From a phage, in sequence record PX418213.1: a stretch of DNA of 64,000 bases. One strand, 5' to 3'. Under the pieces are notes generated by a model that saw nothing but the letters and a program-made list of their open reading frames with translations, ran no database searches and was not told the DNA's origin. The position numbers were made by a program, and so were the translations under genes. Below are positions 203 through 26,463 of the stretch, piece by piece. Positions within the stretch are counted from its first letter, which is position 1; each line of letters starts with the position of its first letter.

Positions 203-278
203 TGGTACACCCACTAGGACTTGAACCTAGAACCCTCCGCTTAAGAGGCGGTAGCTCTAACCATTGAGCTATGGATGT
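203..278 (-). tRNA. tRNA-Lys (anticodon CTT)
   Basis: Reverse-complemented T-arm on + strand (ctaggacttgaacctag); 7-bp acceptor stem acatcca/tgggtgt with one G-U; D-stem gctc/gagc; anticodon loop CTCTTAA; CCA encoded. Confidence 0.7.
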
Positions 279-455
279 ATTAAATTACTTTTTCCAGTTC
301 ATCAGCTATGGCTTTGATTTTTTCAAAGTTTACATCACTTATAATGATACCTTCCAGTGACAGAGATATTCTAGCATTTTTCATAGCAGATTCTTTTATC
401 TGCTCTATCTCTTCTGGAGTAAACTCCCTACGTTCCATAGCTAACCTACCTTATT

Positions 456-532
456 TGGCGCGACCGATGGGATTCGAACCCACATTCCCTCCCGTGACAG
501 GGGAGTACCATTACCAAGCCAGCCCCGGTCGC
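456..532 (-). tRNA. tRNA-Asp (anticodon GTC)
   Basis: T-loop motif ggattcgaacc on + strand; perfect 7-bp acceptor stem gcgaccg/cggtcgc; anticodon stem ctccc/gggag with loop CTGTCAC; CCA encoded. Confidence 0.75.
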
Positions 533-541
533 ATAATTCAT

Positions 542-727
542 TTACTCAGCTTTGAGTTTTTCAATAGCTGCATTAAGTTCCTTAAGAAACTCTTTTCGTA
601 CATTAAGACGATTAAGACTTACTAGTATATCATGTTTAAGTTCTTCGATGTATTTCTTCTCAACTTCAATATTGTTGAGAGTGCTATCACGATGAACCTC
701 TAGCTGCGCAATTACATTCTTGGACAT
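542..727 (-). CDS. hypothetical small protein (61 aa)
   Basis: ORF between tRNA genes; GAGGAAA Shine-Dalgarno-like motif upstream of the ATG on the minus strand. Confidence 0.4.
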   Translation of the reverse strand: MSKNVIAQLEVHRDSTLNNIEVEKKYIEELKHDILVSLNRLNVRKEFLKELNAAIEKLKAE

Positions 728-829
728 GCTTGTTTCCTCAGTTATTAATGAAAATGGTATCTGTGGCTGAATTCGATGTCAGCAATGATAGCTGGTTGGC
801 TACCGGTTTACTTAACTCTACACAGAATT

Positions 830-912
830 TGGCGGGCCGTGTAGGATTCGAACCTACGTTGTCTTTCGACATGGATTAACAGTCCACCGCCAAACCGCTT
901 GGCTAACGACCC
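830..912 (-). tRNA. tRNA with Asn-type anticodon arm (GTT) and a 13-nt extra arm
   Basis: T-arm gtagg-ttcgaat-cctac; acceptor gggtcgt/acggccc with one G-U; anticodon arm gtgga-CTGTTAA-tccat resembles enterobacterial tRNA-Asn; extra arm gtc-gaaa-gac gives 83 nt. Isotype uncertain. Confidence 0.5.
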
Positions 913-1064
913 TAAATTTATATTGCTGACTAGGATTTTCACCTAGACGGAGTTAGCACCGTAGCGTGTAGCGGCATACCTCTCCAAACCGTGCCTCATC
1001 TTTCAATTACGGAGACAGTGTTCCTACGCGTGCCTGAATTGATTTAACAATTCTTTCAGCAAAT

Positions 1065-1140
1065 TGGACGACCGCATGAGATTTGAACTCACATAAAAAG
1101 GATTTGCAATCCTTCGCCTAAGCCATTCAGCCAACGGTCG
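1065..1140 (-). tRNA. tRNA-Cys (anticodon GCA)
   Basis: T-loop revcomp gagatttgaactc on + strand; acceptor cgaccgt/gcggtcg with one G-U; anticodon arm aagga-TTGCAAA-tcctt; CCA encoded. Confidence 0.7.
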
Positions 1141-1188
1141 ATTTATCTTGTTCTGTCATGTTGCTTCTCCAGTTCAATTTATGTAATT

Positions 1189-1217
1189 ATTATACAGAAC
1201 TTTTGGAAACTAAGCAA
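1189..1217 (-). promoter_or_regulatory. sigma70-like promoter (minus strand): -35 TTGCTT, 17-bp spacer, -10 TATAAT
   Basis: On + strand: attata at about 1189-1194 and aagcaa at about 1212-1217; A/T-rich upstream; drives tRNA-Cys. Confidence 0.5.
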
Positions 1218-1497
1218 CTACATTTTTTAAGAATTTGATGCCTTTCTTTTTCTTCTTATATTTCCACGTTAATGGATTCTGTCGATTATGAACGCTTGAG
1301 ATCTTCGTCTCGTCAAAGTTCTTCAATATCATGTAATCACAAGATAATTGTTCTAGTGGAATGTGATCACCGTCAAAAGCGTATACATAGGGCTGTTGAC
1401 TAGCACGATAATGATAGACTTTGTTAATTCTACGTTTCAGCGACTTATCCGCGCAGTAAATAAAGAAGTTTTCAGGATGCATCAGCAGCTCCTTCAA
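1210..1497 (-). CDS. hypothetical protein (95 aa)
   Basis: ORF track; co-oriented with the early block; no recognisable motif. Confidence 0.45.
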   Translation of the reverse strand: MKELLMHPENFFIYCADKSLKRRINKVYHYRASQQPYVYAFDGDHIPLEQLSCDYMILKNFDETKISSVHNRQNPLTWKYKKKKKGIKFLKNVVA

Positions 1498-1499
1498 TT

Positions 1500-1574
1500 T
1501 GGTGCACCCTGTTCGTATCGAACGAACCTCTCAAGCTCTTCAGGCAAGCGCTAATCCATCTCAGCTAAAGGTGC
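1500..1574 (-). tRNA. tRNA-Phe-like (anticodon GAA), non-canonical anticodon stem
   Basis: Acceptor gcacctt/agggtgc; T-arm gttcg-ttcgata-cgaac; D-stem gctg/tagc; anticodon loop CTGAAGA but the stem carries two U-U mismatches. Could be a degenerate tRNA. Confidence 0.45.
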
Positions 1575-1580
1575 AAATTT

Positions 1581-1657
1581 TGGCAAACCTACTAGGACTC
1601 GAACCTAGACCGTACGGTTTTGGAGACCGACATGCTGTCCAGTAACACTCTAGGAAT
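1581..1657 (-). tRNA. tRNA-Trp-like (anticodon CCA)
   Basis: Anticodon arm tcggt-CTCCAAA-accgt and T-arm ctagg-ttcgagt-cctag closely resemble E. coli tRNA-Trp; acceptor stem pairs only 5 of 7 (two U-U), so the 5' boundary is uncertain. Confidence 0.5.
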
Positions 1658-1665
1658 GCAGGAAT

Positions 1666-1742
1666 TGGCGTCCTGTGCGGGGGTCGAACCCGCAAATCCT
1701 ACCTTGAAAGGGTAGTGACTTTACCAGTTTGTCTAACAGGAC
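1666..1742 (-). tRNA. tRNA-Glu (anticodon TTC)
   Basis: Perfect acceptor gtcctgt/acaggac; T-arm gcggg-ttcgacc-cccgc; anticodon arm ctacc-CTTTCAA-ggtag; CCA encoded. Confidence 0.7.
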
Positions 1743-1748
1743 TTAAAT

Positions 1749-1836
1749 TGGTGGGGAAAGATGGAGTCGAACCACCCGAGTCGCAATGACAACTGATTTA
1801 CAGTCAGCTCTGCTACCACTTACAGAATATTTCCCC
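1749..1836 (-). tRNA. tRNA-Tyr (anticodon GTA), class II with long variable arm
   Basis: Perfect acceptor ggggaaa/tttcccc; anticodon arm gctga-CTGTAAA-tcagt; long extra arm; T-arm ggtgg-ttcgact-ccatc; 88 nt with CCA. Confidence 0.7.
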
Positions 1837-1902
1837 ATATTTAGAAGTATTCAAAAAATTCTAATTTAAACACTTTTAAATATGTTTCCAAATTAGGTAA
1901 CT

Positions 1903-1931
1903 ATTATACCAAGTTTTAAGGCACTGAGCAA
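1903..1931 (-). promoter_or_regulatory. sigma70-like promoter (minus strand): -35 TTGCTC, 17 bp, -10 TATAAT
   Basis: Same architecture; immediately upstream of the tRNA-Tyr/Glu/Trp/Phe run. Confidence 0.5.
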
Positions 1932-1967
1932 GTCAAATTTTAAAGAACTTGCTCAGTGCTGTATTGG

Positions 1968-2243
1968 TTAGTCGAACTTAGGAGTGACAGTTAAGGAGAA
2001 TGGAAGTTCGAAAACTTCTTCACCCTCATTACTAACAGTAATTACACGACCTTTAAGTTCAGACATTGAAATATCAATATCAGCTTTTGCATCCGGAGCC
2101 ATGCCAGCTTCAACACATTTAGCTTTAATTTCCGGCAGAAGTTCTACATCATAGAAATAAAGCCATTCAATCTCACCTTCCCAGCCTTCCCAGGATTTAC
2201 AGATTGCACTTTCAATACCAGCTGCTATAACACGATTTTGCAT
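1968..2243 (-). CDS. hypothetical protein (91 aa)
   Basis: ORF track; promoter-like motif just upstream on the minus strand (about 2274-2304). Confidence 0.5.
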   Translation of the reverse strand: MQNRVIAAGIESAICKSWEGWEGEIEWLYFYDVELLPEIKAKCVEAGMAPDAKADIDISMSELKGRVITVSNEGEEVFELPFSLTVTPKFD

Positions 2244-2333
2244 TCATTAACTCCTTCATCAATTTATATAACTATTATATCAGAAATTTAAAGCAAAAGG
2301 CAAGTACATTTTTAAAAATTCTGTTTGGAGGAG

Positions 2334-2540
2334 CTAAACTCCAGATTCTTCAGCCAAGTCTAGGCTAATAAGAGATATAGCCATAATTGCCGCTCCATGT
2401 TCTTTTTCTCCAGTCTCTTTAGCTAGAGTTATAATGTCAAGAAATTGCTTATGAAAATCTGCAACCTCTTGAGTTATACCTGCCTCAGCAATCATGCCTT
2501 TAAGCATAAAACGTTGTGCAGTAATTTCAGGATTAGCCAT
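2334..2540 (-). CDS. hypothetical protein (68 aa)
   Basis: ORF track; co-oriented with the early block. Confidence 0.4.
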   Translation of the reverse strand: MANPEITAQRFMLKGMIAEAGITQEVADFHKQFLDIITLAKETGEKEHGAAIMAISLISLDLAEESGV

Positions 2541-2715
2541 GTTGTTTCTCCAGTTTCATCTTTAATAGTCTACAAATAAAATCAATGTCTTCATCCGTGC
2601 CTAGATCTCTGTCTTCAAGAGTTGCCTTGAAGTTTTTAGTCAATTCCATGAGGATAACTTCCCTAGAACGACGTGTTGGCGGAGGTGGATGTCTATACAT
2701 CTTATTTCCTTAATT

Positions 2716-2792
2716 TGGTAGGGGTGGTGGGATTCGAACCCACAAAACCTGAATTTTAAGTCCAGTACCTATGCCAATTCGATTACACCCCC
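2716..2792 (-). tRNA. tRNA with anticodon TAA (Leu-type reading) but short variable arm
   Basis: Acceptor gggggtg/cacccct; T-arm gtggg-ttcgaat-cccac; anticodon arm ctgga-CTTAAAA-ttcag; variable region only about 5 nt. Isotype uncertain. Confidence 0.5.
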
Positions 2793-2893
2793 ATGTAATC
2801 AGTTTATTAGTTGATACATATTATAGCCTAGTGAAAATCCTACTACTAGTCCCACAAACCAACCAATATAATAATCTTTTAGTTTCACAGGTA

Positions 2894-3079
2894 TTATCCT
2901 CTTTCAATATCTAGAGAAATACCACAGTTAGGATTAATACCTGTACCCTTGCAATTTGGGCAAATCCATATATTGCAAAAAGTATCTCCTGCTTCTGCAT
3001 CAGAACTTTCACCAATTCCCCTACACTCAGGGCAGGCGCATTCTTCTAGCTCTTGCTTGAGTTCTTGAAACTTGGACAT
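2894..3079 (-). CDS. small zinc-finger protein with two CxxCxGxG motifs (DnaJ-type)
   Basis: Translation contains CPECRGIG and CPNCKGTG. Confidence 0.45.
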   Translation of the reverse strand: MSKFQELKQELEECACPECRGIGESSDAEAGDTFCNIWICPNCKGTGINPNCGISLDIERG

Positions 3080-3088
3080 ATAGTCTCC

Positions 3089-3277
3089 TTAGTTAATTAC
3101 TTTTGAGGCTTCTAAAGCATTAACGTAGTAAACATCTTCTACATTATACATATAGTCTACTACTTTGTCCATAGCATGGAGTTCGGATGTAGCCTTTACT
3201 AGTCTGTACCCTTGTTTAAACTCGTCCGAACGTTCTCTATCTTGTGCAAATTTAACAGAAACTATGAATAATTCCAT
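3089..3277 (-). CDS. hypothetical protein (62 aa)
   Basis: ORF track only. Confidence 0.35.
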   Translation of the reverse strand: MELFIVSVKFAQDRERSDEFKQGYRLVKATSELHAMDKVVDYMYNVEDVYYVNALEASKVIN

Positions 3278-3296
3278 TAATTGTCCTTATTTAATT

Positions 3297-3374
3297 TGGT
3301 GGCTCCCCGAGGATTCGAACCTACGTACCTTCCGGTTATGAGCCGGGTGCTCATACCATATGAGCTTGAGAACC
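3297..3374 (-). tRNA. tRNA-Met/Ile-like (anticodon CAT)
   Basis: D-arm gctc-atatggtat-gagc; anticodon arm ccgg-CTCATAA-ccgg resembling Met tRNAs; acceptor ggttctc/gggagcc with two G-U; T-stem has only 3 clean pairs. Confidence 0.5.
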
Positions 3375-3380
3375 AAAATC

Positions 3381-3469
3381 TGGCGGAAGAAGTGGGAATC
3401 GAACCCACAAGGCTATATTTCAAACCGACAGATTAGCAATCTGCTGCAATACCGTTATGCTATTCTTCC
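3381..3469 (-). tRNA. tRNA-Ser (anticodon GCT), class II
   Basis: Perfect acceptor ggaagaa/ttcttcc; anticodon arm gcaga-TTGCTAA-tctgt; long extra arm; T-arm gtggg-ttcgatt-cccac; 89 nt with CCA. Confidence 0.7.
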
Positions 3470-3484
3470 GAATTTATAAGATAT

Positions 3485-3514
3485 ATTATATTAGAAATTT
3501 AGCTTCATAGCAAG
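3485..3514 (-). promoter_or_regulatory. sigma70-like promoter (minus strand)
   Basis: attata/agcaag pair with 18-bp spacer; upstream of tRNA-Ser and tRNA-Met-like. Confidence 0.45.
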
Positions 3515-4009
3515 AAAATTTTTCAAGTTTTCGGTAGACATCTCATCCATATCTACGGGAGAAACAAAGCCGTTTAATTTTCTAGCAAATTTTTCACCTG
3601 CAGGGTCATTATCCCCAACAGCTACCAATTTAAAAGGTAGTAATTTCAGTTGCTTTAATAATGCTTTTCCTGGAGAAGAACCCAACATTGCCAGGGCTGG
3701 ATAACCAGCGTTATGTAGCGCCACTGCCTTAAATACAGACTCAGCAATCAATACTACTTTTTCATCTCCATTGAGAGTTTCTAGTCCCCATACACACTGG
3801 GTAGTAGAATAAGTAAAATATTTAGCTTCAAAGGGGCACTTACCATGACCTTTTGGAGCAGAAGGATTATAAGTTTGATAGCCCCTCAACATCCCAGAGA
3901 AGTCATACAACGGGACTGTTAGCCATCCTTCCGGACTTAACCAGCAATGATATTTATCTGTATCAAATCCTCTAGATAAGAGGTGCTGTGTTAGCTCATC
4001 AACATTCAT
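3491..4009 (-). CDS. Toprim-domain protein
   Basis: Translation has the conserved Glu (LIAESV) and a DxD-type motif (VAVGDNDPAGEKFARKL). Start moved to the internal ATG at 4009 (MNVDEL) because the promoter -10 lies at about 4040-4045 and an AGAGGAA SD precedes it. Confidence 0.5.
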   Translation of the reverse strand: MNVDELTQHLLSRGFDTDKYHCWLSPEGWLTVPLYDFSGMLRGYQTYNPSAPKGHGKCPFEAKYFTYSTTQCVWGLETLNGDEKVVLIAESVFKAVALHNAGYPALAMLGSSPGKALLKQLKLLPFKLVAVGDNDPAGEKFARKLNGFVSPVDMDEMSTENLKNFLAMKLNF

Positions 4010-4039
4010 ATTTGGTTCCTCTCTCAAATTTATAGATAT

Positions 4040-4068
4040 ATTATACTGAGAATTTAGCATTCAAGCAA
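4040..4068 (-). promoter_or_regulatory. sigma70-like promoter (minus strand)
   Basis: attata/aagcaa with 17-bp spacer; upstream of the Toprim gene. Confidence 0.45.
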
Positions 4069-4184
4069 TCAAATTTTTTAACTTTTTAGAGGAAAATCAT
4101 AGGGCACTTAAGGGTAGCAGATAAGTGGTGAGGACCAAAATTTGTGACCCCACTAAAAATTCAGGGGCAATTTTTAAAGACCCC

Positions 4185-4213
4185 TTGACATTTTCGCTGG
4201 GGTAGTGTAAAGT
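4185..4213 (+). promoter_or_regulatory. sigma70-like promoter (plus strand): -35 TTGACA, about 17 bp, -10 TAAAGT
   Basis: ccTTGACAttttcgctggggtagtgTAAAGTat upstream of the counter-oriented cassette. Confidence 0.45.
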
Positions 4214-4274
4214 ATATGTTATGGATGAGTGATCAAAGAGACACACATTTTCTATATACTAGGAGGTGTCAAAA

Positions 4275-5261
4275 ATGACAGAAGAAGTAGCTAAGAGTCC
4301 TGAGACCGTCGCTAGCGTTGCAGCAGAACTGCACCGTCACGAGGAATCAGATAAGAAAAAGTGGGAGAAGGTCAGAGCCTACGAAGAAAAACATCGTGAA
4401 CACGATGATGAAGAAGATGACGATGATGAACATTGTCATAAATATGGAAAACATAAAATGCAAGAACCAGTAAACGTATTTACTAGTGGCTTCCCTGGCC
4501 TACTGGGTGGTTACCCAGCAAACGCAGGTGCTTTCGGTGGTGAAGGTATGGGACTATTCGGAGCTATCCTAATCGGTGCTCTATTAACAGGCGGATTCGG
4601 TGGATTCGGTGGATTCGGTGGACGTGGTATAGTTGGTGAAGGTACCGCAGTTGATGCAGTACTTCAGAACCAAGATACCGCTAGTATTCTAGCAGCTATT
4701 AACACTACTCGTACAGAAGCTAATCAGGGTACTGGGGCTGTTTTAAGCGCAGTTAACAATGGTTTTAGCCAGACATCCCAAAACCAGAGCCGTGATACTC
4801 AGTCTGTACTAACTACGATCTATGGTACAGGTGCTAATCTGTCTAATCAGATCTGCCAGGAAACTCGCAATGTTATTCAGGGTCAGTTCGATCTTTCTCG
4901 CCAGATTGATCAATCTTTCGCAGCTAATCAGATAGCTCGTGCACAAGATAAGTTTGATTCTGCACAGATCGCTTTCCAGCAGACTTTACAAACTAATAAC
5001 CAGTTTGCCGCTGTTCAGGCTCAGATGTGTGCTAACCAGAACTCTCTGGAACGTCAGATCGCTGAATGTTGCTGTGAACTTCAGACTGCGATCGCTGGTG
5101 TAACTACTGCGCGTATCCAGGATGAGTTAGACGCATGTCGCCTACGTGAAGCAATCGCTGCGGGTAGCGGTGCTAACGGTCAGGTAATTAATCAAATCGC
5201 TTTAAGTCTTGGTGCTATCACTCAGACTCTGGCTGGTCTGCAGGCTAAACTGCCGGCTTAA
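4275..5261 (+). CDS. hypothetical protein: acidic His-rich N-terminus, glycine-zipper hydrophobic segment, Gln/Asn/Thr-rich C-terminus
   Basis: AGGAGG SD at 4261-4266 then ATG 4275 (the track start at 4266 is GTG); GLFGAILIGALLTGGFGGFGGFGG segment; E. coli-like codon choice; plus-strand gene inside the minus-strand block. Confidence 0.55.
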   Translation: MTEEVAKSPETVASVAAELHRHEESDKKKWEKVRAYEEKHREHDDEEDDDDEHCHKYGKHKMQEPVNVFTSGFPGLLGGYPANAGAFGGEGMGLFGAILIGALLTGGFGGFGGFGGRGIVGEGTAVDAVLQNQDTASILAAINTTRTEANQGTGAVLSAVNNGFSQTSQNQSRDTQSVLTTIYGTGANLSNQICQETRNVIQGQFDLSRQIDQSFAANQIARAQDKFDSAQIAFQQTLQTNNQFAAVQAQMCANQNSLERQIAECCCELQTAIAGVTTARIQDELDACRLREAIAAGSGANGQVINQIALSLGAITQTLAGLQAKLPA

Positions 5262-5282
5262 TATTAAGGGGAGGAGCCCATT

Positions 5283-5699
5283 ATGAGTAAATATGGTTTT
5301 GTAAATAACGGACTTAATCAAAGTATGGGCTCCCAGCAGCCCGTTCCGGGTCTGGATAACCCCTACTTACAACAGTTGCAACAGCGTTTAGCAGAAGCGC
5401 AACAGATGCAGCAACAACTCCAGCAAAACCCTGGAAGTGTAAGTCCTATGCAAATGATGCAGCAAATGAGCGGGCAGTCGCAAATGTCTCAACAAATGCA
5501 GCAACAGATGCCGCAGCAGCAAGTTCAACAACAAACCCAACAACCGCAGGTTTCTGCGGAAGGACAGGCAGTACTAGCCCTTTTCGAAGACTTCGCAAAG
5601 ACAGAGGATGGGAAACAGCTTGTATCACTTATGGGTAAGTTTAATAGCTTCTGCCAAAGCCAAGTTGCAAAAGCTCAAAATGGTGGTAATAACTCCTAA
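5283..5699 (+). CDS. hypothetical Gln-rich protein (138 aa)
   Basis: GGGGAGGAG SD upstream of ATG; highly Gln-rich low-complexity translation; co-transcribed with the 4275 gene. Confidence 0.5.
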   Translation: MSKYGFVNNGLNQSMGSQQPVPGLDNPYLQQLQQRLAEAQQMQQQLQQNPGSVSPMQMMQQMSGQSQMSQQMQQQMPQQQVQQQTQQPQVSAEGQAVLALFEDFAKTEDGKQLVSLMGKFNSFCQSQVAKAQNGGNNS

Positions 5700-5708
5700 G
5701 GAGAAATT

Positions 5709-5903
5709 ATGTGTTGCAGAAAATCTGTTTCGTGCTGCCCAATGCCTGTAGCACGTTGTTGCTCTCCAGCAATGTTTACGCAAATACCGGCGTTCAATCC
5801 GTTTGCCTTTAAGCCTACTCTTATCCTGCCCCCTAGAGTGGATTTTCAGTCAAGATTGGCCTCCCGTATGGGTGGTTGCTGTACACCGAGAGTGTGGTTC
5901 TAA
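5709..5903 (+). CDS. hypothetical Cys-rich small protein (64 aa, 9 Cys)
   Basis: AAGGAG SD at about 5697-5702 then ATG 5709; CC pairs in translation; followed by a rho-independent terminator. Confidence 0.4.
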   Translation: MCCRKSVSCCPMPVARCCSPAMFTQIPAFNPFAFKPTLILPPRVDFQSRLASRMGGCCTPRVWF

Positions 5904-5915
5904 ACCAAAAACAAA

Positions 5916-5949
5916 AGCCCCTGCCGAAAGGTAAGGGGCTTTTTCTTTT
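5916..5949 (+). terminator. rho-independent terminator for the rightward cassette
   Basis: Hairpin agcccct/aggggct followed by ttttctttt. Confidence 0.6.
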
Positions 5950-5959
5950 GCCTTAAATA

Positions 5960-5994
5960 CAGAAAAGCCCGCGCTCTCGGAGGAAACGCGGGCT
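5960..5994 (-). terminator. rho-independent terminator (minus strand) after the SPFH gene
   Basis: Hairpin agcccgcg/cgcgggct; on the minus strand it is followed by TTTTCT. Confidence 0.55.
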
Positions 5995-6018
5995 TGGTTC
6001 GAAGATTACGTGTAACTA

Positions 6019-6966
6019 TTACTTGTTACGCATATCCATGATCATTTGACCATCGTAGCCAGTACCTACCACAGTCTGAGGTACACCACCTTGATATTTC
6101 TGAGCACGAATCATCTCAACTTCCAGTTGTTTCCAACGAATCATCTCAGGAGTAATAGTACGTTGCAATGCGGCGTTAGCTTCAGCTTCTTTCTTAGCTG
6201 CGTACAGTTTAGCATCTGCGTCACGTTCATTAGCAATAGCTTGGTTGTTGCGAGCTTCACGATCTGCTTCTGCTTGTTTAACCTTCTGCTGTGCTTCTTG
6301 TTCAACACGAGCCAGTTCAGCTTTTGCAGCATTAACTTGCTCTTCACGAACTTTGGTATTCTGTACCTGCTCCATGATTACCGGTGGCAAAGTAATATCC
6401 TGAAGGAACACCTGCTTAACTGTGTAACCATATGGGCGTGCATACTCTTCAACTTCCTGTTGAATTGCAGTTTGCAATTGAGCCTGAATTTTAGCATCAA
6501 ACAAATCTTGTGCTTTAGGTACAGACTTACCAAACTCACGAATAGTAGACAGTAATTTTTCAGTTACATATTTGTCTAACGCTTGATCCTGAGTACCTGC
6601 ATTAATACGGTTAATCGGTGCCTTAGAACCATCAAACTGCAACATAACAGTCAGGTCAACAGTGGATTTAAACTTATCCTGACTAGGAACCTGAAGTTTA
6701 TCTAATTTTAGAGCAATATCTTTTGTACTAAAAGTATCGAAAGAAGCAAAAGGATTTACAATATGAAAGCCGGGTAATACTGGATTAGGGTCTACTTTAC
6801 CCAGGAAAGTCTGGGTTTTAACAGTACCGTCTTGAACAACAGTATAGGAGTTAAGGGCCAGAACTAAACCTACCAAACCAACTGCAGCACCAATACCCCA
6901 ACGTTTGATATTACGCATCAATTTTTGCTCATAAGTCAGTTCTTTAGTGTTTTTAGTAGCAAACAT
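6019..6966 (-). CDS. SPFH/band-7 (prohibitin/stomatin-like) membrane protein
   Basis: N-terminal hydrophobic segment (IGAAVGLVGLVLAL), SPFH-like core, Ala/Glu/Gln-rich coiled-coil C-terminus; terminator hairpin downstream on the minus strand. Confidence 0.65.
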   Translation of the reverse strand: MFATKNTKELTYEQKLMRNIKRWGIGAAVGLVGLVLALNSYTVVQDGTVKTQTFLGKVDPNPVLPGFHIVNPFASFDTFSTKDIALKLDKLQVPSQDKFKSTVDLTVMLQFDGSKAPINRINAGTQDQALDKYVTEKLLSTIREFGKSVPKAQDLFDAKIQAQLQTAIQQEVEEYARPYGYTVKQVFLQDITLPPVIMEQVQNTKVREEQVNAAKAELARVEQEAQQKVKQAEADREARNNQAIANERDADAKLYAAKKEAEANAALQRTITPEMIRWKQLEVEMIRAQKYQGGVPQTVVGTGYDGQMIMDMRNK

Positions 6967-7000
6967 ATATTTCCTTTGTTTTAGTTACAGTTAATAAAAT

Positions 7001-7075
7001 TGGCCGAGGTGACAGGATTCGAACCTGCATAAAGGAATTTAGAAGACTCCTGCCTCTCCCTTAGACTACACCCCG
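7001..7075 (-). tRNA. tRNA-Arg (anticodon TCT)
   Basis: Acceptor cggggtg/cacctcg with one G-U; T-loop ggattcgaacc motif on +; anticodon arm ggagt-CTTCTAA-attcc; CCA encoded. Confidence 0.7.
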
Positions 7076-21176: not shown

Positions 21177-21205
21177 TTGACATCCGCCCTCGAATGAGTT
21201 ATAAT
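21177..21205 (+). promoter_or_regulatory. sigma70 promoter (plus strand): consensus -35 TTGACA, 17 bp, -10 TATAAT, upstream of nrdD
   Basis: TTGACAtccgccctcgaatgagtTATAAT; further TTGACA/TTGACT elements at about 21119-21141 suggest tandem promoters at the divergent junction. Confidence 0.6.
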
Positions 21206-23109: not shown

Positions 23110-23117
23110 GCTAATCA

Positions 23118-23150
23118 GCCGGGTTGCTAGTCGACCTGGCTTTTATTTTA
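23118..23150 (+). terminator. rho-independent terminator after nrdD
   Basis: Stem gccgggt/acctggc with one G-U, then ttttatttta. Confidence 0.5.
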
Positions 23151-23208: not shown

Positions 23209-23589
23209 ATGGAATTAAAGCCCTATATAGTTGAATCTACATGTGGTGGTTTCCATCTGGGTGTGGATGATATTGCTGAGGCTGTCTTTGCTGCCACAGG
23301 TGATTACTCGCACATAGAGGGTGTTGCATACCCTACCATTATTGGCGATTGGGTAGGAACAAATCTAGATGTATCTCCTTATAACCCATATTGCTTGTTT
23401 GATGAAGACAGAGATGAAGTAAAATGTAATCTTGAATTTGTGTATAATAGAGTGTTAAAAGTATACCAACGTAGCCCCAATGGGTACGAAGATATTACTT
23501 GGAGCATTAAACAGTATCTTAAAGATATATACTCTAGTTTTTCTGACGAAGACCTAGAAACAGTTGCAGTGGAGTTTAATAATGACTAA
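23209..23589 (+). CDS. hypothetical protein (126 aa)
   Basis: ORF track; GAGAGGAG SD; promoter at about 23151-23180. Confidence 0.5.
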   Translation: MELKPYIVESTCGGFHLGVDDIAEAVFAATGDYSHIEGVAYPTIIGDWVGTNLDVSPYNPYCLFDEDRDEVKCNLEFVYNRVLKVYQRSPNGYEDITWSIKQYLKDIYSSFSDEDLETVAVEFNND

Positions 23590-23788
23590 GAATGTGAAAC
23601 ACCTTAAATATCGCTTAATTTACAATGGACGTATGGAAACAGAAGACCTAGCCCAATTAGCTATTAATTCTAATGAGGTTACAGTGCGTGCGCTGGCAAT
23701 TGAAAAGTTGCGTGCCTCTTATGAAAATCGTGTTATGGAACTAGAGGAGAAACTTTATGGCATTCTCGAAGCCGATGCTACCAGATAA
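23582..23788 (+). CDS. hypothetical protein (about 68 aa)
   Basis: Track ORF 23564..23788 begins with TTG; ATG at 23582 preceded by GGAG is preferred. Confidence 0.4.
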   Translation: MTKNVKHLKYRLIYNGRMETEDLAQLAINSNEVTVRALAIEKLRASYENRVMELEEKLYGILEADATR

Positions 23789-23978
23789 TGGTTTAAATGC
23801 CGCTTTGGAAAATGCATTAATGCAGCAGTGGGAAACTGGCTATAAGGATGGTGTTGAATCCTGTGCTACTATGCTAGAAGTTATTGCTAATACCTTAATG
23901 GAGAAAGGCAATAAAGAATTAGCTGAGCTATTAGACAGTATTGGGCAAAACTTCAGAGAACAGGTGAAAAATGCGTAG
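23757..23978 (+). CDS. hypothetical protein (73 aa)
   Basis: ORF track; GAGGAG SD upstream. Confidence 0.45.
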   Translation: MAFSKPMLPDNGLNAALENALMQQWETGYKDGVESCATMLEVIANTLMEKGNKELAELLDSIGQNFREQVKNA

Positions 23979-24789
23979 ATTAATTATTATTAGCGGTGCA
24001 GGTTTGAGTGTTGAAAGTGGTGTACGAGCTTTTCGTACTGATACTACTAGTGGTAAAGCACTGTGGGATGACTATGATCTAGAAGAAGTATGTAATATTC
24101 ATGCCTTTCGTGGTAATTTTTATCATAAAACCCATATGTTTTACAACAAGCGTCGTGAAGAGCTAAAAACTGTTGAACCCAATCTTGCGCATTTGCGTAT
24201 TGGTGAATGGTATAAACAATATCCAGGTCAAGTAGTAAACTTGACTACCAACGTTGATGACCTTATTGAGCGTGCTGGAGTTCCACATAGTGACATTCTG
24301 CACATTCACGGATATTTAAAAGAGGTTGTTGTAGCTGATAGCTACAATAGTAGCAATAAACGGATTATTGATGTAGGATACAATTCTGTTGATCCAGATG
24401 ATTATAAATGGGTTAAACCTAATGTAATCTTCTTTGGAGAGCATGCTCCTGCATACGCAGAAATGTATAATGTTTTTGATGGTATTACCAGTCAAGATAT
24501 GATCATTGTGGTTGGTTGCTCTAACCAAGTAATTAACTTCTACTGGGAATTATTTCCTGTTCTTAATTTGACTGCTGCGAAACTTATGGTTGTTAACTAT
24601 TATGATAGTGCCCTAGCGGCGGAACCGGGCTATCAAGGTATGACTCGTAGTGAGATGTACCAGCTGGAAGAACGTGGTATCCCTTACTGGAGTAAAGGTG
24701 CAGTAGATGCTTTCAGTGATCCTGATTTTATTGCTCGTGTAGAAGCTCATTTAGAGGGTAGACCTTATGTGTCGAGAAGCAAGAAATAA
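23971..24789 (+). CDS. Sir2 (sirtuin)-family NAD-dependent protein
   Basis: N-terminal NAD-binding motif ISGAGLSVESGVRAFR, catalytic His context (ILHIHGYL), VIFFGE and IVVGCS blocks. Confidence 0.65.
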   Translation: MRRLIIISGAGLSVESGVRAFRTDTTSGKALWDDYDLEEVCNIHAFRGNFYHKTHMFYNKRREELKTVEPNLAHLRIGEWYKQYPGQVVNLTTNVDDLIERAGVPHSDILHIHGYLKEVVVADSYNSSNKRIIDVGYNSVDPDDYKWVKPNVIFFGEHAPAYAEMYNVFDGITSQDMIIVVGCSNQVINFYWELFPVLNLTAAKLMVVNYYDSALAAEPGYQGMTRSEMYQLEERGIPYWSKGAVDAFSDPDFIARVEAHLEGRPYVSRSKK

Positions 24790-24964
24790 TGAATGGGATA
24801 TTTTTATAACTGAGTCTGGCACTTGGTGTTATAGGTTTGCCTACAGGTTTGCCTACAGGTTTCCTAGTGTAAGAAAACGGTTGGGATACGCATATAAAAT
24901 TATCTATACTATGGATAATATATGGTTATCCTCTGGAGATGAGGAGAAACAGGTATGTCCATAG
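24767..24964 (+). CDS. hypothetical small protein, paralog of the next ORF (shared DIF..G.WCYR motif)
   Basis: DIFITESGTWCYRF here versus DIFVWADGSWCYRC in 24955..25137; contains a 12-bp tandem DNA repeat. Confidence 0.4.
   Translation: MCREARNNEWDIFITESGTWCYRFAYRFAYRFPSVRKRLGYAYKIIYTMDNIWLSSGDEEKQVCP
24831..24864 (+). repeat. short tandem direct repeat (12-bp unit ctacaggtttgc, about 2.8 copies)
   Basis: ataggtttgc ctacaggtttgc ctacaggtttcc read directly. Confidence 0.6.
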
Positions 24965-25137
24965 TTAAATCTGTGTATACACATCCAGATGATATATTTG
25001 TATGGGCGGATGGTAGTTGGTGCTATCGCTGTGAGCTGTGGGAAATGGATTATAAATCCGATGACTATGGTGTTATATATGTTGATACGGTTGAGTATGA
25101 TACGTTCTTAGAAAGGAACAGAAATGGAAATAAGTAA
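24955..25137 (+). CDS. hypothetical small protein, paralog of the previous ORF
   Basis: Shared motif; GAGGAGAAACAGG SD then ATG. Confidence 0.4.
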   Translation: MSIVKSVYTHPDDIFVWADGSWCYRCELWEMDYKSDDYGVIYVDTVEYDTFLERNRNGNK

Positions 25138-25632: not shown

Positions 25633-26061
25633 ATGTTCAATAATGTATTCTCTAAAGAAGCTAACCCAATTTTGGTTAACTTTTGGCGTACTCTCCCGGC
25701 TAGCCTGTATAATGAGGCTATTAACTCCTTGAAAATATGGTGTGAGAATAATGAAATCTCCTTTGCTTTTAAAGATGATATTGATGAGGGCCCCTGTATT
25801 GGTTTAACTGTGCAGGTAGAGGATGGTCTTGAAGAGATTGTCGGCTGGAAAGAGTTGGATGAAATGGGCTTAGTTTTTGCGTTAAACTATAAGCTGTTTA
25901 TGCCTAACAAACACCGTATTGCTATTAATTATAAAACCGGTGAATCTCCTGGTTTTCAGGTTAATGAACGTTATGGTTGGTCTTACTCACCAGAAGAAGT
26001 AAATGAGGGGATTCAGAAACTTCGACGTTTCGGGTATATAATCCCAGGTTTAACTGCTTAA
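25633..26061 (+). CDS. hypothetical protein, tandem paralog A
   Basis: Shares blocks with 26071..26463: SF.F...IDxxPCIG, EL..MGL..ALN, PGL near C-terminus. Confidence 0.5.
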   Translation: MFNNVFSKEANPILVNFWRTLPASLYNEAINSLKIWCENNEISFAFKDDIDEGPCIGLTVQVEDGLEEIVGWKELDEMGLVFALNYKLFMPNKHRIAINYKTGESPGFQVNERYGWSYSPEEVNEGIQKLRRFGYIIPGLTA

Positions 26062-26070
26062 GGAGGCAGA

Positions 26071-26463
26071 ATGGAACAAGTATATTGGCGTCAGATTGAC
26101 CCTAGTTTGGTGAAACGTGCGGAGAAGCTGCTACAACGTTGGTTGGGGGTAAGACAAGCCTCCTTCACTTTTCCGGAACAGCAAATAGATGACCCCTGCA
26201 TTGGTGTTTTCCTGTCTGGATATGCCGGGGAATGGGAATTGGATTGGAATGAATTGTCTGCTATGGGCTTGATTGTTGCCCTAAACTTCTCTATATTCCA
26301 TCCACGTGGTTTGGCCATATGTCGTGTGCCTGATGACGGTTGTTCGCCCCATCTTTTACAGGTGGAAGATGATATTTGGGAGTACACTCCAGATATTCTC
26401 AAAGAGGCTAAAGAACAATTAAACCGTGTTGGGATATATGTTCCGGGATTAAATGATGAATAA
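26071..26463 (+). CDS. hypothetical protein, tandem paralog B
   Basis: See paralog A; AAGGAGG SD upstream. Confidence 0.5.
   Translation: MEQVYWRQIDPSLVKRAEKLLQRWLGVRQASFTFPEQQIDDPCIGVFLSGYAGEWELDWNELSAMGLIVALNFSIFHPRGLAICRVPDDGCSPHLLQVEDDIWEYTPDILKEAKEQLNRVGIYVPGLNDE

Follow-up and report, generated by a model that had tools for sequence, protein, structure and literature searches.

What a lytic phage gains from a sirtuin of its own is the question raised by a gene at 23971..24789 of the window, a 64,000-nucleotide stretch of sequence record PX418213.1 from the genome of a T5-like phage (Tequintavirus, Demerecviridae). The gene encodes a Sir2-family protein with the sirtuin fold and the full set of catalytic residues for canonical sirtuin chemistry. 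The reading favoured here, at a probability of roughly 40%, is that this protein works in the nicotinamide adenine dinucleotide (NAD+)-dependent healing of RNA ends together with a HAD_SAK_2 phosphatase encoded downstream of it. The gene and its neighbourhood are already known, having been annotated in more than 200 phage genomes and described and interpreted in print in 2022 (PMC9503650). As a sequence feature the gene is routine; its interest lies in the biochemistry of a clade of phage sirtuins that lack the zinc ribbon, keep an anion pocket and are found beside RNA-end-healing and NAD-salvage genes.

Assignment to the Sir2 family, which the first-pass annotation had made from the sequence alone, was confirmed by matches to Pfam SIR2 (PF02146; E=5e-25, 88.8 bits with a gathering threshold of 24, spanning positions 1-178 of the 180 in the model) and to PHROG 2162 (E=2e-121), and the best relative of solved structure in a PDB sequence search was E. 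coli CobB (E=2e-17). Residue conservation was determined from an alignment of 48 homologues with 55-86% identity, and all statements of invariance below refer to that alignment. The NAD loop GAGLSVESGVRAFR (residues 9-22) followed the sirtuin consensus GAGxSxxSGIPxFR, with G9, A10, G11, S13, S16, G17, F21 and R22 invariant, but the Pro of "IPxF" was not conserved. Also invariant were N94 and D96 of the nicotinamide pocket, the general base H113 with G114, which aligned with the HG motif of CobB and with His158 of SIRT5, the xKPxVxFFGE segment, G182/S184 and N209. The pocket motif was TTNVD, not TQNxD, as the Gln was replaced by Thr93 in every member. The NAD-binding signature and catalytic His that had been read from the translation were thus borne out, and the His and Asn positions were kept in a proper alignment. 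A confident AlphaFold2 model (predicted local distance difference test score, pLDDT, 89.9; predicted template modelling score, pTM, 0.88) was used for fold searches, in which the nearest folds were all active sirtuins and no clustering with a non-enzymatic Rossmann-fold family was seen; matches in BFVD were to other viral sirtuins only.

Comparison with characterised sirtuins showed that the phage protein groups with the canonical deacylase type, with class III nearest (a CobB/SIRT5-like design). Solved relatives ranked in the order CobB, Sir2-Af1/Af2, SIRT5 and Sir2Tm, and identity to SIRT5, the sequence of which was validated against PDB entries, was 31% over 213 residues. In CobB and SIRT5, a Tyr/Arg pair binds the negatively charged acyl group, and the residues aligned with this pair (CobB Y92/R95, SIRT5 Y102/R105) were Y58 and R61, both invariant. 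A passage of PMC6636992 cites the importance of CobB Y92/R95 for desuccinylation. The Cys4 zinc ribbon was absent: the segment separating H113 from K149 contained neither a Cys nor a His that was conserved, conservation of Cys was limited to C41 and C183, and the positions of the SIRT5 zinc ligands Cys166/169/207/212 aligned with gaps or with residues other than Cys. Three beta strands occupied the zinc-ribbon position in the AlphaFold2 model (pLDDT 90-96), so that a cysteine-free beta module has taken the place of the ribbon in the clade. All NCBIfam CobB/deacylase cut-offs were missed by a wide margin: the subfamily-type model NF001753 gave the best score, 100.8 bits where 243 are required, and the CobB equivalog model NF040867 gave 90.2 against 320 bits; these scores point to a protein that is related to CobB and is not its equivalog. 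Three derived features, namely the loss of the zinc cysteines, the change of the motif Gln to Thr and the sub-threshold NCBIfam scores, set the clade apart.

The family was large but restricted to phages. It comprised 172 clusters at E<=1e-3, of which the top 120 were all at least 50% identical to the query; among these 120, the named members came nearly all from T5-like and ~145-kb enterobacterial phages, and every match with a named source was a phage protein or a hypothetical protein of a Salmonella assembly. The first-pass annotation had also raised the question of whether the protein would join the CobB/SIRT side or the ThsA/DSR side of the superfamily. It joined the canonical side, nearest to class III, and has the look of a housekeeping sirtuin and not of a NAD-destroying defence enzyme. 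When the sirtuin and HAD proteins were scanned with PADLOC, no defence family matched at E<=1, and membership of the defence-type Sir2 group was rejected on that basis. By fold, the defence Sir2 NADases were the sirtuins most distant from the phage protein, which has a single domain and is neither fused nor adjacent to a defence sensor or partner (SLOG, HerA, pAgo, STAND or a large terminal domain), its neighbours being HAD_SAK_2, DUF7415 and small open reading frames (ORFs).

Evidence for a role in RNA repair came from gene neighbourhoods. Fifty-nine viral loci encoding a relative of the sirtuin were fetched (identified by L numbers where needed) and their flanks were searched for neighbour families. 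The phosphatase that the first-pass annotation had placed next to the sirtuin was identified as HAD_SAK_2, starting 335 nt 3' of the gene, with motif I (FLDIDGV) and the DxD motif intact; a PDB sequence search with this protein found no solved-structure relative at E<=1. In 28 of the 31 T5-like loci, Sir2 was followed by HAD_SAK_2 at a distance of 0-442 nt, and DUF7415 adjoined the sirtuin in all 31. In Erwinia phage KEY the HAD gene, encoding a 42% identical protein, was upstream of Sir2, and in Serratia phage Slocum it was absent. Alignment showed that the spacer between Sir2 and HAD is indel-polymorphic in T5-like phages, with two ORFs in the window and in T5, one in L011 and none in L017; in the state without small ORFs the Sir2 stop overlaps the HAD start. 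This adjacency, which has outlasted rearrangement as seen in the three spacer states and in the gene order of KEY, suggests that the two genes are functionally linked.

Sirtuins of more distant phages were found within RNA-repair strings. The ~145-kb phages (Raoultella phage Ro1, Erwinia phage pEa_SNUABM_55 and uncultured relatives) encode a 50-63% identical sirtuin in the order Metallophos, Rnl1-type RNA ligase, cREC, AAA_33 kinase, Sir2 and ATP DNA ligase, with NAMPT and phosphoribosyl pyrophosphate (PRPP) synthetase a few kb away (within ~6 kb in L002 and L009). Rnl1 cassettes adjoined the sirtuin in 11 non-T5-like loci and also in L068, a 607-kb megaphage contig in which Rnl1 was two genes upstream of a 35%-identical sirtuin. 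That relatives at 35-63% identity stand beside an Rnl1 RNA ligase, a kinase, cREC and a phosphoesterase favours RNA-end healing as the role of the family. The reading is further supported by the HAD_SAK_2 linkage, kept across rearrangement and evolutionary distance, and by the tRNA array of the window.

Other neighbours were more varied. In L068, an arginase-family gene (PF00491, E=9e-76; L068:6818-7720) was an unexpected occupant of the interval between Rnl1 and the sirtuin. NAMPT was directly upstream of the sirtuin in L067, and one jumbo phage had a nucleoside deoxyribosyltransferase-like gene downstream of it. Fourteen sirtuin loci contained none of the screened neighbour families; in later searches, NAMPT turned up near L064 and L067 and a Macro gene near L042. 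In Escherichia phage ECO340P2 (152 kb), a gene of the Acb2/Tad1-hairpin type, resembling the anti-CBASS/anti-Thoeris sponges, was found at L005:2940-3215, and a DUF7277-DUF7275 protein recurred upstream of the sirtuin in the same lineage (L005, L044 and L060).

An RNA-repair role was first proposed in PMC9503650, where the sirtuin was predicted to act like KptA in the NAD+-dependent removal of 2'-phosphates from cleaved RNA. In the proposed mechanism the enzyme would bind NAD+ and expel nicotinamide, an anionic oxygen nucleophile held by Tyr58 and Arg61 would attack C1'' of the ADP-ribose, and His113 would then activate the ribose 2''-OH for a second step. The acceptor may be the phosphate on a damaged RNA end, which would be removed as ADP-ribose 1'',2''-cyclic phosphate in the manner of KptA/Tpt1. 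Besides agreeing with the neighbouring genes, a phosphate acceptor would be a natural use of the anion pocket. The HAD_SAK_2 protein would trim RNA-end phosphates or dephosphorylate the ADP-ribose-phosphate by-product, and either cREC or the HAD phosphatase could process the cyclic phosphate. Sirtuin and HAD together would in this way heal tRNA or other RNA cut by host nucleases early in infection.

Several observations weigh against this proposal. We know of no sirtuin that acts on RNA, and the nearest characterised relatives by both sequence and fold are all protein deacylases. Neither an RNA ligase nor an AAA_33-type kinase or cREC was found in the window or in a whole T5-like genome by annotation and hidden Markov model (HMM) search, so the ligation step that makes or needs a 2'-phosphate would be missing there. 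Among 56 viral loci with Rnl1 cassettes, 45 were without Sir2 and only 11 had a sirtuin within 5 kb, while two phages carried the sirtuin ~31 kb from an intact cassette (L045/L046 are the same contigs as L078/L077). Even at E<=10, a Pfam-validated KptA query detected no KptA in the 125 fetched loci. The Rnl1-kinase-phosphoesterase cassette is therefore self-sufficient, and a 2'-phosphotransferase is not something that such cassettes generally require. NAMPT accompanies Rnl1 cassettes with or without a sirtuin. A weak objection, in which bulk charge serves as a proxy for RNA binding, is that the sirtuin family is uniformly acidic (median isoelectric point (pI) 5.2, net charge -6 to -20) as opposed to KptA with a pI of 9.4.

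The sirtuin-less cassettes of this kind (L082, L083, L085, L086, L088-L090, L092, L095-L097, L102 and L109) were recurrently found within a few kb of NAMPT, and a few of them near a Macro-domain gene. RNA-repair cassettes are thus linked to NAD/ADP-ribose metabolism independently of Sir2 or KptA. Gene displacement, in which the sirtuin would have replaced KptA, was considered and found unsupported, as Rnl1 cassettes without a sirtuin also lack KptA, and NAMPT and Macro recur instead.

A tentative second choice, nearly as likely as RNA repair and in best agreement with the proteins to which the phage enzyme is closest, is that the gene is a phage version of CobB and encodes a plain protein lysine deacylase that uses NAD+, possibly of the desuccinylase type and with a probable preference for the acidic succinyl and malonyl groups in addition to acetyl. 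By deacylating host or phage proteins, such as RNA polymerase, metabolic enzymes or tRNA synthetases, the enzyme would keep them active in infection. The best sequence matches (CobB, Sir2-Af1/Af2 and SIRT5) argue for it, as do the annotation in databases and genome announcements and the invariance of all residue classes needed for deacylation, among them the substrate-staple motif FGE and the YxxR pair of class III. However, the zinc ribbon, which is known from characterised deacylase sirtuins, is missing across the family, Thr stands in place of the motif Gln in every member, and the scores fall far under every NCBIfam CobB/deacylase cut-off. The neighbours, moreover, are nucleic-acid and NAD enzymes and never protein-modification genes. 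The conserved neighbours, in this phage lineage as in others, serve RNA-end processing and NAD salvage, and for this very neighbourhood the published reading is RNA repair (PMC9503650).

It is improbable that the sirtuin manipulates the NAD+ pool or serves counter-defence, whether by hydrolysing NAD+ or an NAD-derived immune signal or by processing, with the HAD protein, small molecules derived from ADP-ribose so as to blunt immunity. NAD-salvage genes do often lie near the sirtuins of relatives: a NAMPT homologue was found near 31 of the 125 fetched loci, some of which are the same contig fetched twice, and the Acb2/Tad1-hairpin gene of L005 is 3.8 kb upstream of its sirtuin. But NAMPT is equally linked to Rnl1 cassettes without Sir2, so that the linkage is not specific to the sirtuin, and no NAMPT was found in the window or in the annotated T5-like genome. 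HMM similarity to the defence Sir2 NADases was nil. T5-like phages also need NAD+ for their own NAD-dependent DNA ligase, and bulk destruction of NAD+ would therefore be self-harming. The first-pass interpretation accordingly stands in part: the family and the HAD neighbour were correct and an effect on protein acylation is a live possibility, but the link to defence NADases and the suggestion of counter-defence gained no specific support, and the latter conflicts with the phage's NAD-dependent DNA ligase. Equally improbable is a mono-ADP-ribosyltransferase of proteins (or DNA) for host takeover, an analogue of T4 Alt/ModA/ModB built on a sirtuin fold in the manner of SirTM, as identity to SirTM is 13% and deacylases are closer, no Macro partner was found in the window or in T5-like loci (Macro was found only in L042, L082, L085, L086, L089 and L102), and the gene context suggests no target.

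Within the favoured RNA-repair reading, the most novel claim is a rather doubtful one: that the T5-type sirtuin is the first sirtuin with a nucleic acid as its physiological substrate, its Tyr/Arg pocket binding the end phosphate of cleaved tRNA or other RNA for NAD+-dependent removal, with the SAK-type HAD finishing the end. If this is true, T5-like phages, alongside their own tRNA genes, would gain a ligase-independent or host-RtcB-dependent means of undoing the damage done by tRNA-cleaving defences. If RNA is the substrate, the reach of sirtuin chemistry would widen to nucleic acids, and phage RNA repair would acquire a step that depends on NAD+; if the enzyme is a deacylase, it would clearly exemplify a lytic phage that rewrites the acylation of host proteins.

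The sirtuin gene belongs to a rightward string of genes (Table 1) that starts at the promoter before nrdD and ends before the gene for the replication-origin-binding protein. That promoter is likely the early promoter of the string.

Table 1. Features of the gene string around the phage sirtuin, in window coordinates
Feature	Coordinates	Strand	Remarks
Sigma-70 promoter ahead of nrdD	21177..21205	+	Perfect consensus (TTGACA-17-TATAAT), 12/12 matches
Three small upstream ORFs (126 aa, 74 aa, 73 aa)	23209..23978	+	PHROGs 11748, 5236 and 5827; no assigned function
Sir2-family (sirtuin) gene	23971..24789	+	819-bp ORF, 272 aa; class-III-like, without zinc ribbon
Two small ORFs (65 aa, 60 aa) in the Sir2-HAD spacer	24767..25137	+	Second is PHROG 5116
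HAD_SAK_2 phosphatase ("Swiss army knife" RNA-repair type), 168 aa	25124..25630	+	Pfam PF18143, E=4e-20
Two paralogous DUF7415 genes (142 aa, 130 aa)	25633..26463	+	No assigned function

A terminator-like hairpin (23117-23141; 10-bp stem and T-tract) lies just 3' of nrdD and upstream of the Sir2 genes, and its position suggests that these are reached by read-through or served by a weaker internal promoter. An AGGTGA ribosome-binding site precedes the sirtuin ORF, and the last of the three small upstream ORFs ends in a stop codon that overlaps the sirtuin ATG. A homologue of the 126-aa upstream protein is encoded directly upstream of Sir2 in Erwinia phage KEY. Elsewhere in the window, eleven tRNA genes on the minus strand (203..7075; Lys, Asp, Asn, Cys, Phe, Trp, Glu, Tyr, Leu, Ser and Arg) form a T5-type tRNA array.

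Two further observations concern the genes downstream. A 12-bp tandem duplication, GGTTTGCCTACA x2 at ~24831-24854, produces "YRFAYRFAYRF" in the 65-aa spacer ORF and is missing in L022, a 121,750-bp contig of T5 length. In addition, PHROG 18062, which is labelled "Sir2 (NAD-dependent deacetylase)", matched HAD_SAK_2 over the C-terminal half of that phosphatase (E=6e-58), and as a result of this mislabel many pharokka-style records list "Sir2 NAD-dependent deacetylase (x2)". The second "Sir2" in such records is the HAD gene, for example PV577657.1 CDS0140 (L001:6993-7499), and is a propagated annotation error.

A search of the literature on sirtuins of T5 or other phages found annotations and one computational prediction, and no experimental study. 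Genome announcements have remarked on the T5-like Sir2 gene, and the prediction is that of Iyer, Burroughs, Anantharaman and Aravind (Viruses 2022, PMC9503650), who described a distinct phage sirtuin clade with three types of neighbourhood. In the third, exemplified by Escherichia phage SP15, the sirtuin is found with a Swiss-army-knife HAD, and the gene in the window represents the same protein family in the same neighbourhood; SP15 is a close relative of the window phage, its DUF7415 protein being 91% identical. The second type (Rnl1, cREC, kinase and calcineurin-like phosphoesterase) was independently re-derived in the present analysis. Caveats added here beyond the emphasis of that paper are that T5-like phages are without an RNA ligase, that most Rnl1 cassettes are without a sirtuin and none has KptA, and that the family is acidic.

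Among known systems, the defence Sir2 NADases (ThsA, DSR1/2, Sir2-HerA, SPARSA and Avs5) have the same superfamily fold as the phage sirtuin. KptA/Tpt1 (ADP-ribosyltransferase (ART) fold) has an unrelated fold, no homology and a basic rather than acidic character; what it would have in common is the proposed chemistry, in which NAD+ is used, ADP-ribose is transferred to a phosphate oxygen and attack by the 2''-OH yields ADP-ribose 1'',2''-cyclic phosphate, and like the phage sirtuin it is associated with RNA-repair genes. The class III enzymes CobB and SIRT5 (deacetylase, desuccinylase and demalonylase) have in common with the phage sirtuin the NAD loop, the N, D and H residues, FGE, GxS, YxxR and the fold, whereas the phage protein is without the zinc cysteines, has TTNVD for TQNID and GVRAFR for GIPxFR, and is phage-restricted. 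The closest known system is the Sir2-like protein of T5 and other Tequintavirus/Demerecviridae phages (PHROG 2162), which is the same gene. It is matched by 234 deposited phage records, usually annotated "Sir2 NAD-dependent deacetylase", with a best DNA identity of 97-98% and with 226 records covering at least 80% of the gene, and protein identity to L022 is 94%. The 11 kb around the sirtuin are collinear with Escherichia phage MM-1 and many other phages, and the T5-like order of PhoH and NrdD, small ORFs, Sir2, HAD, DUF7415 and origin-binding protein is found in the window as well. The differences are at strain level only, with a C-terminal length that varies (272 aa in the window, 278 aa in phage MM-1) and the indel-polymorphic spacer ahead of the HAD gene.
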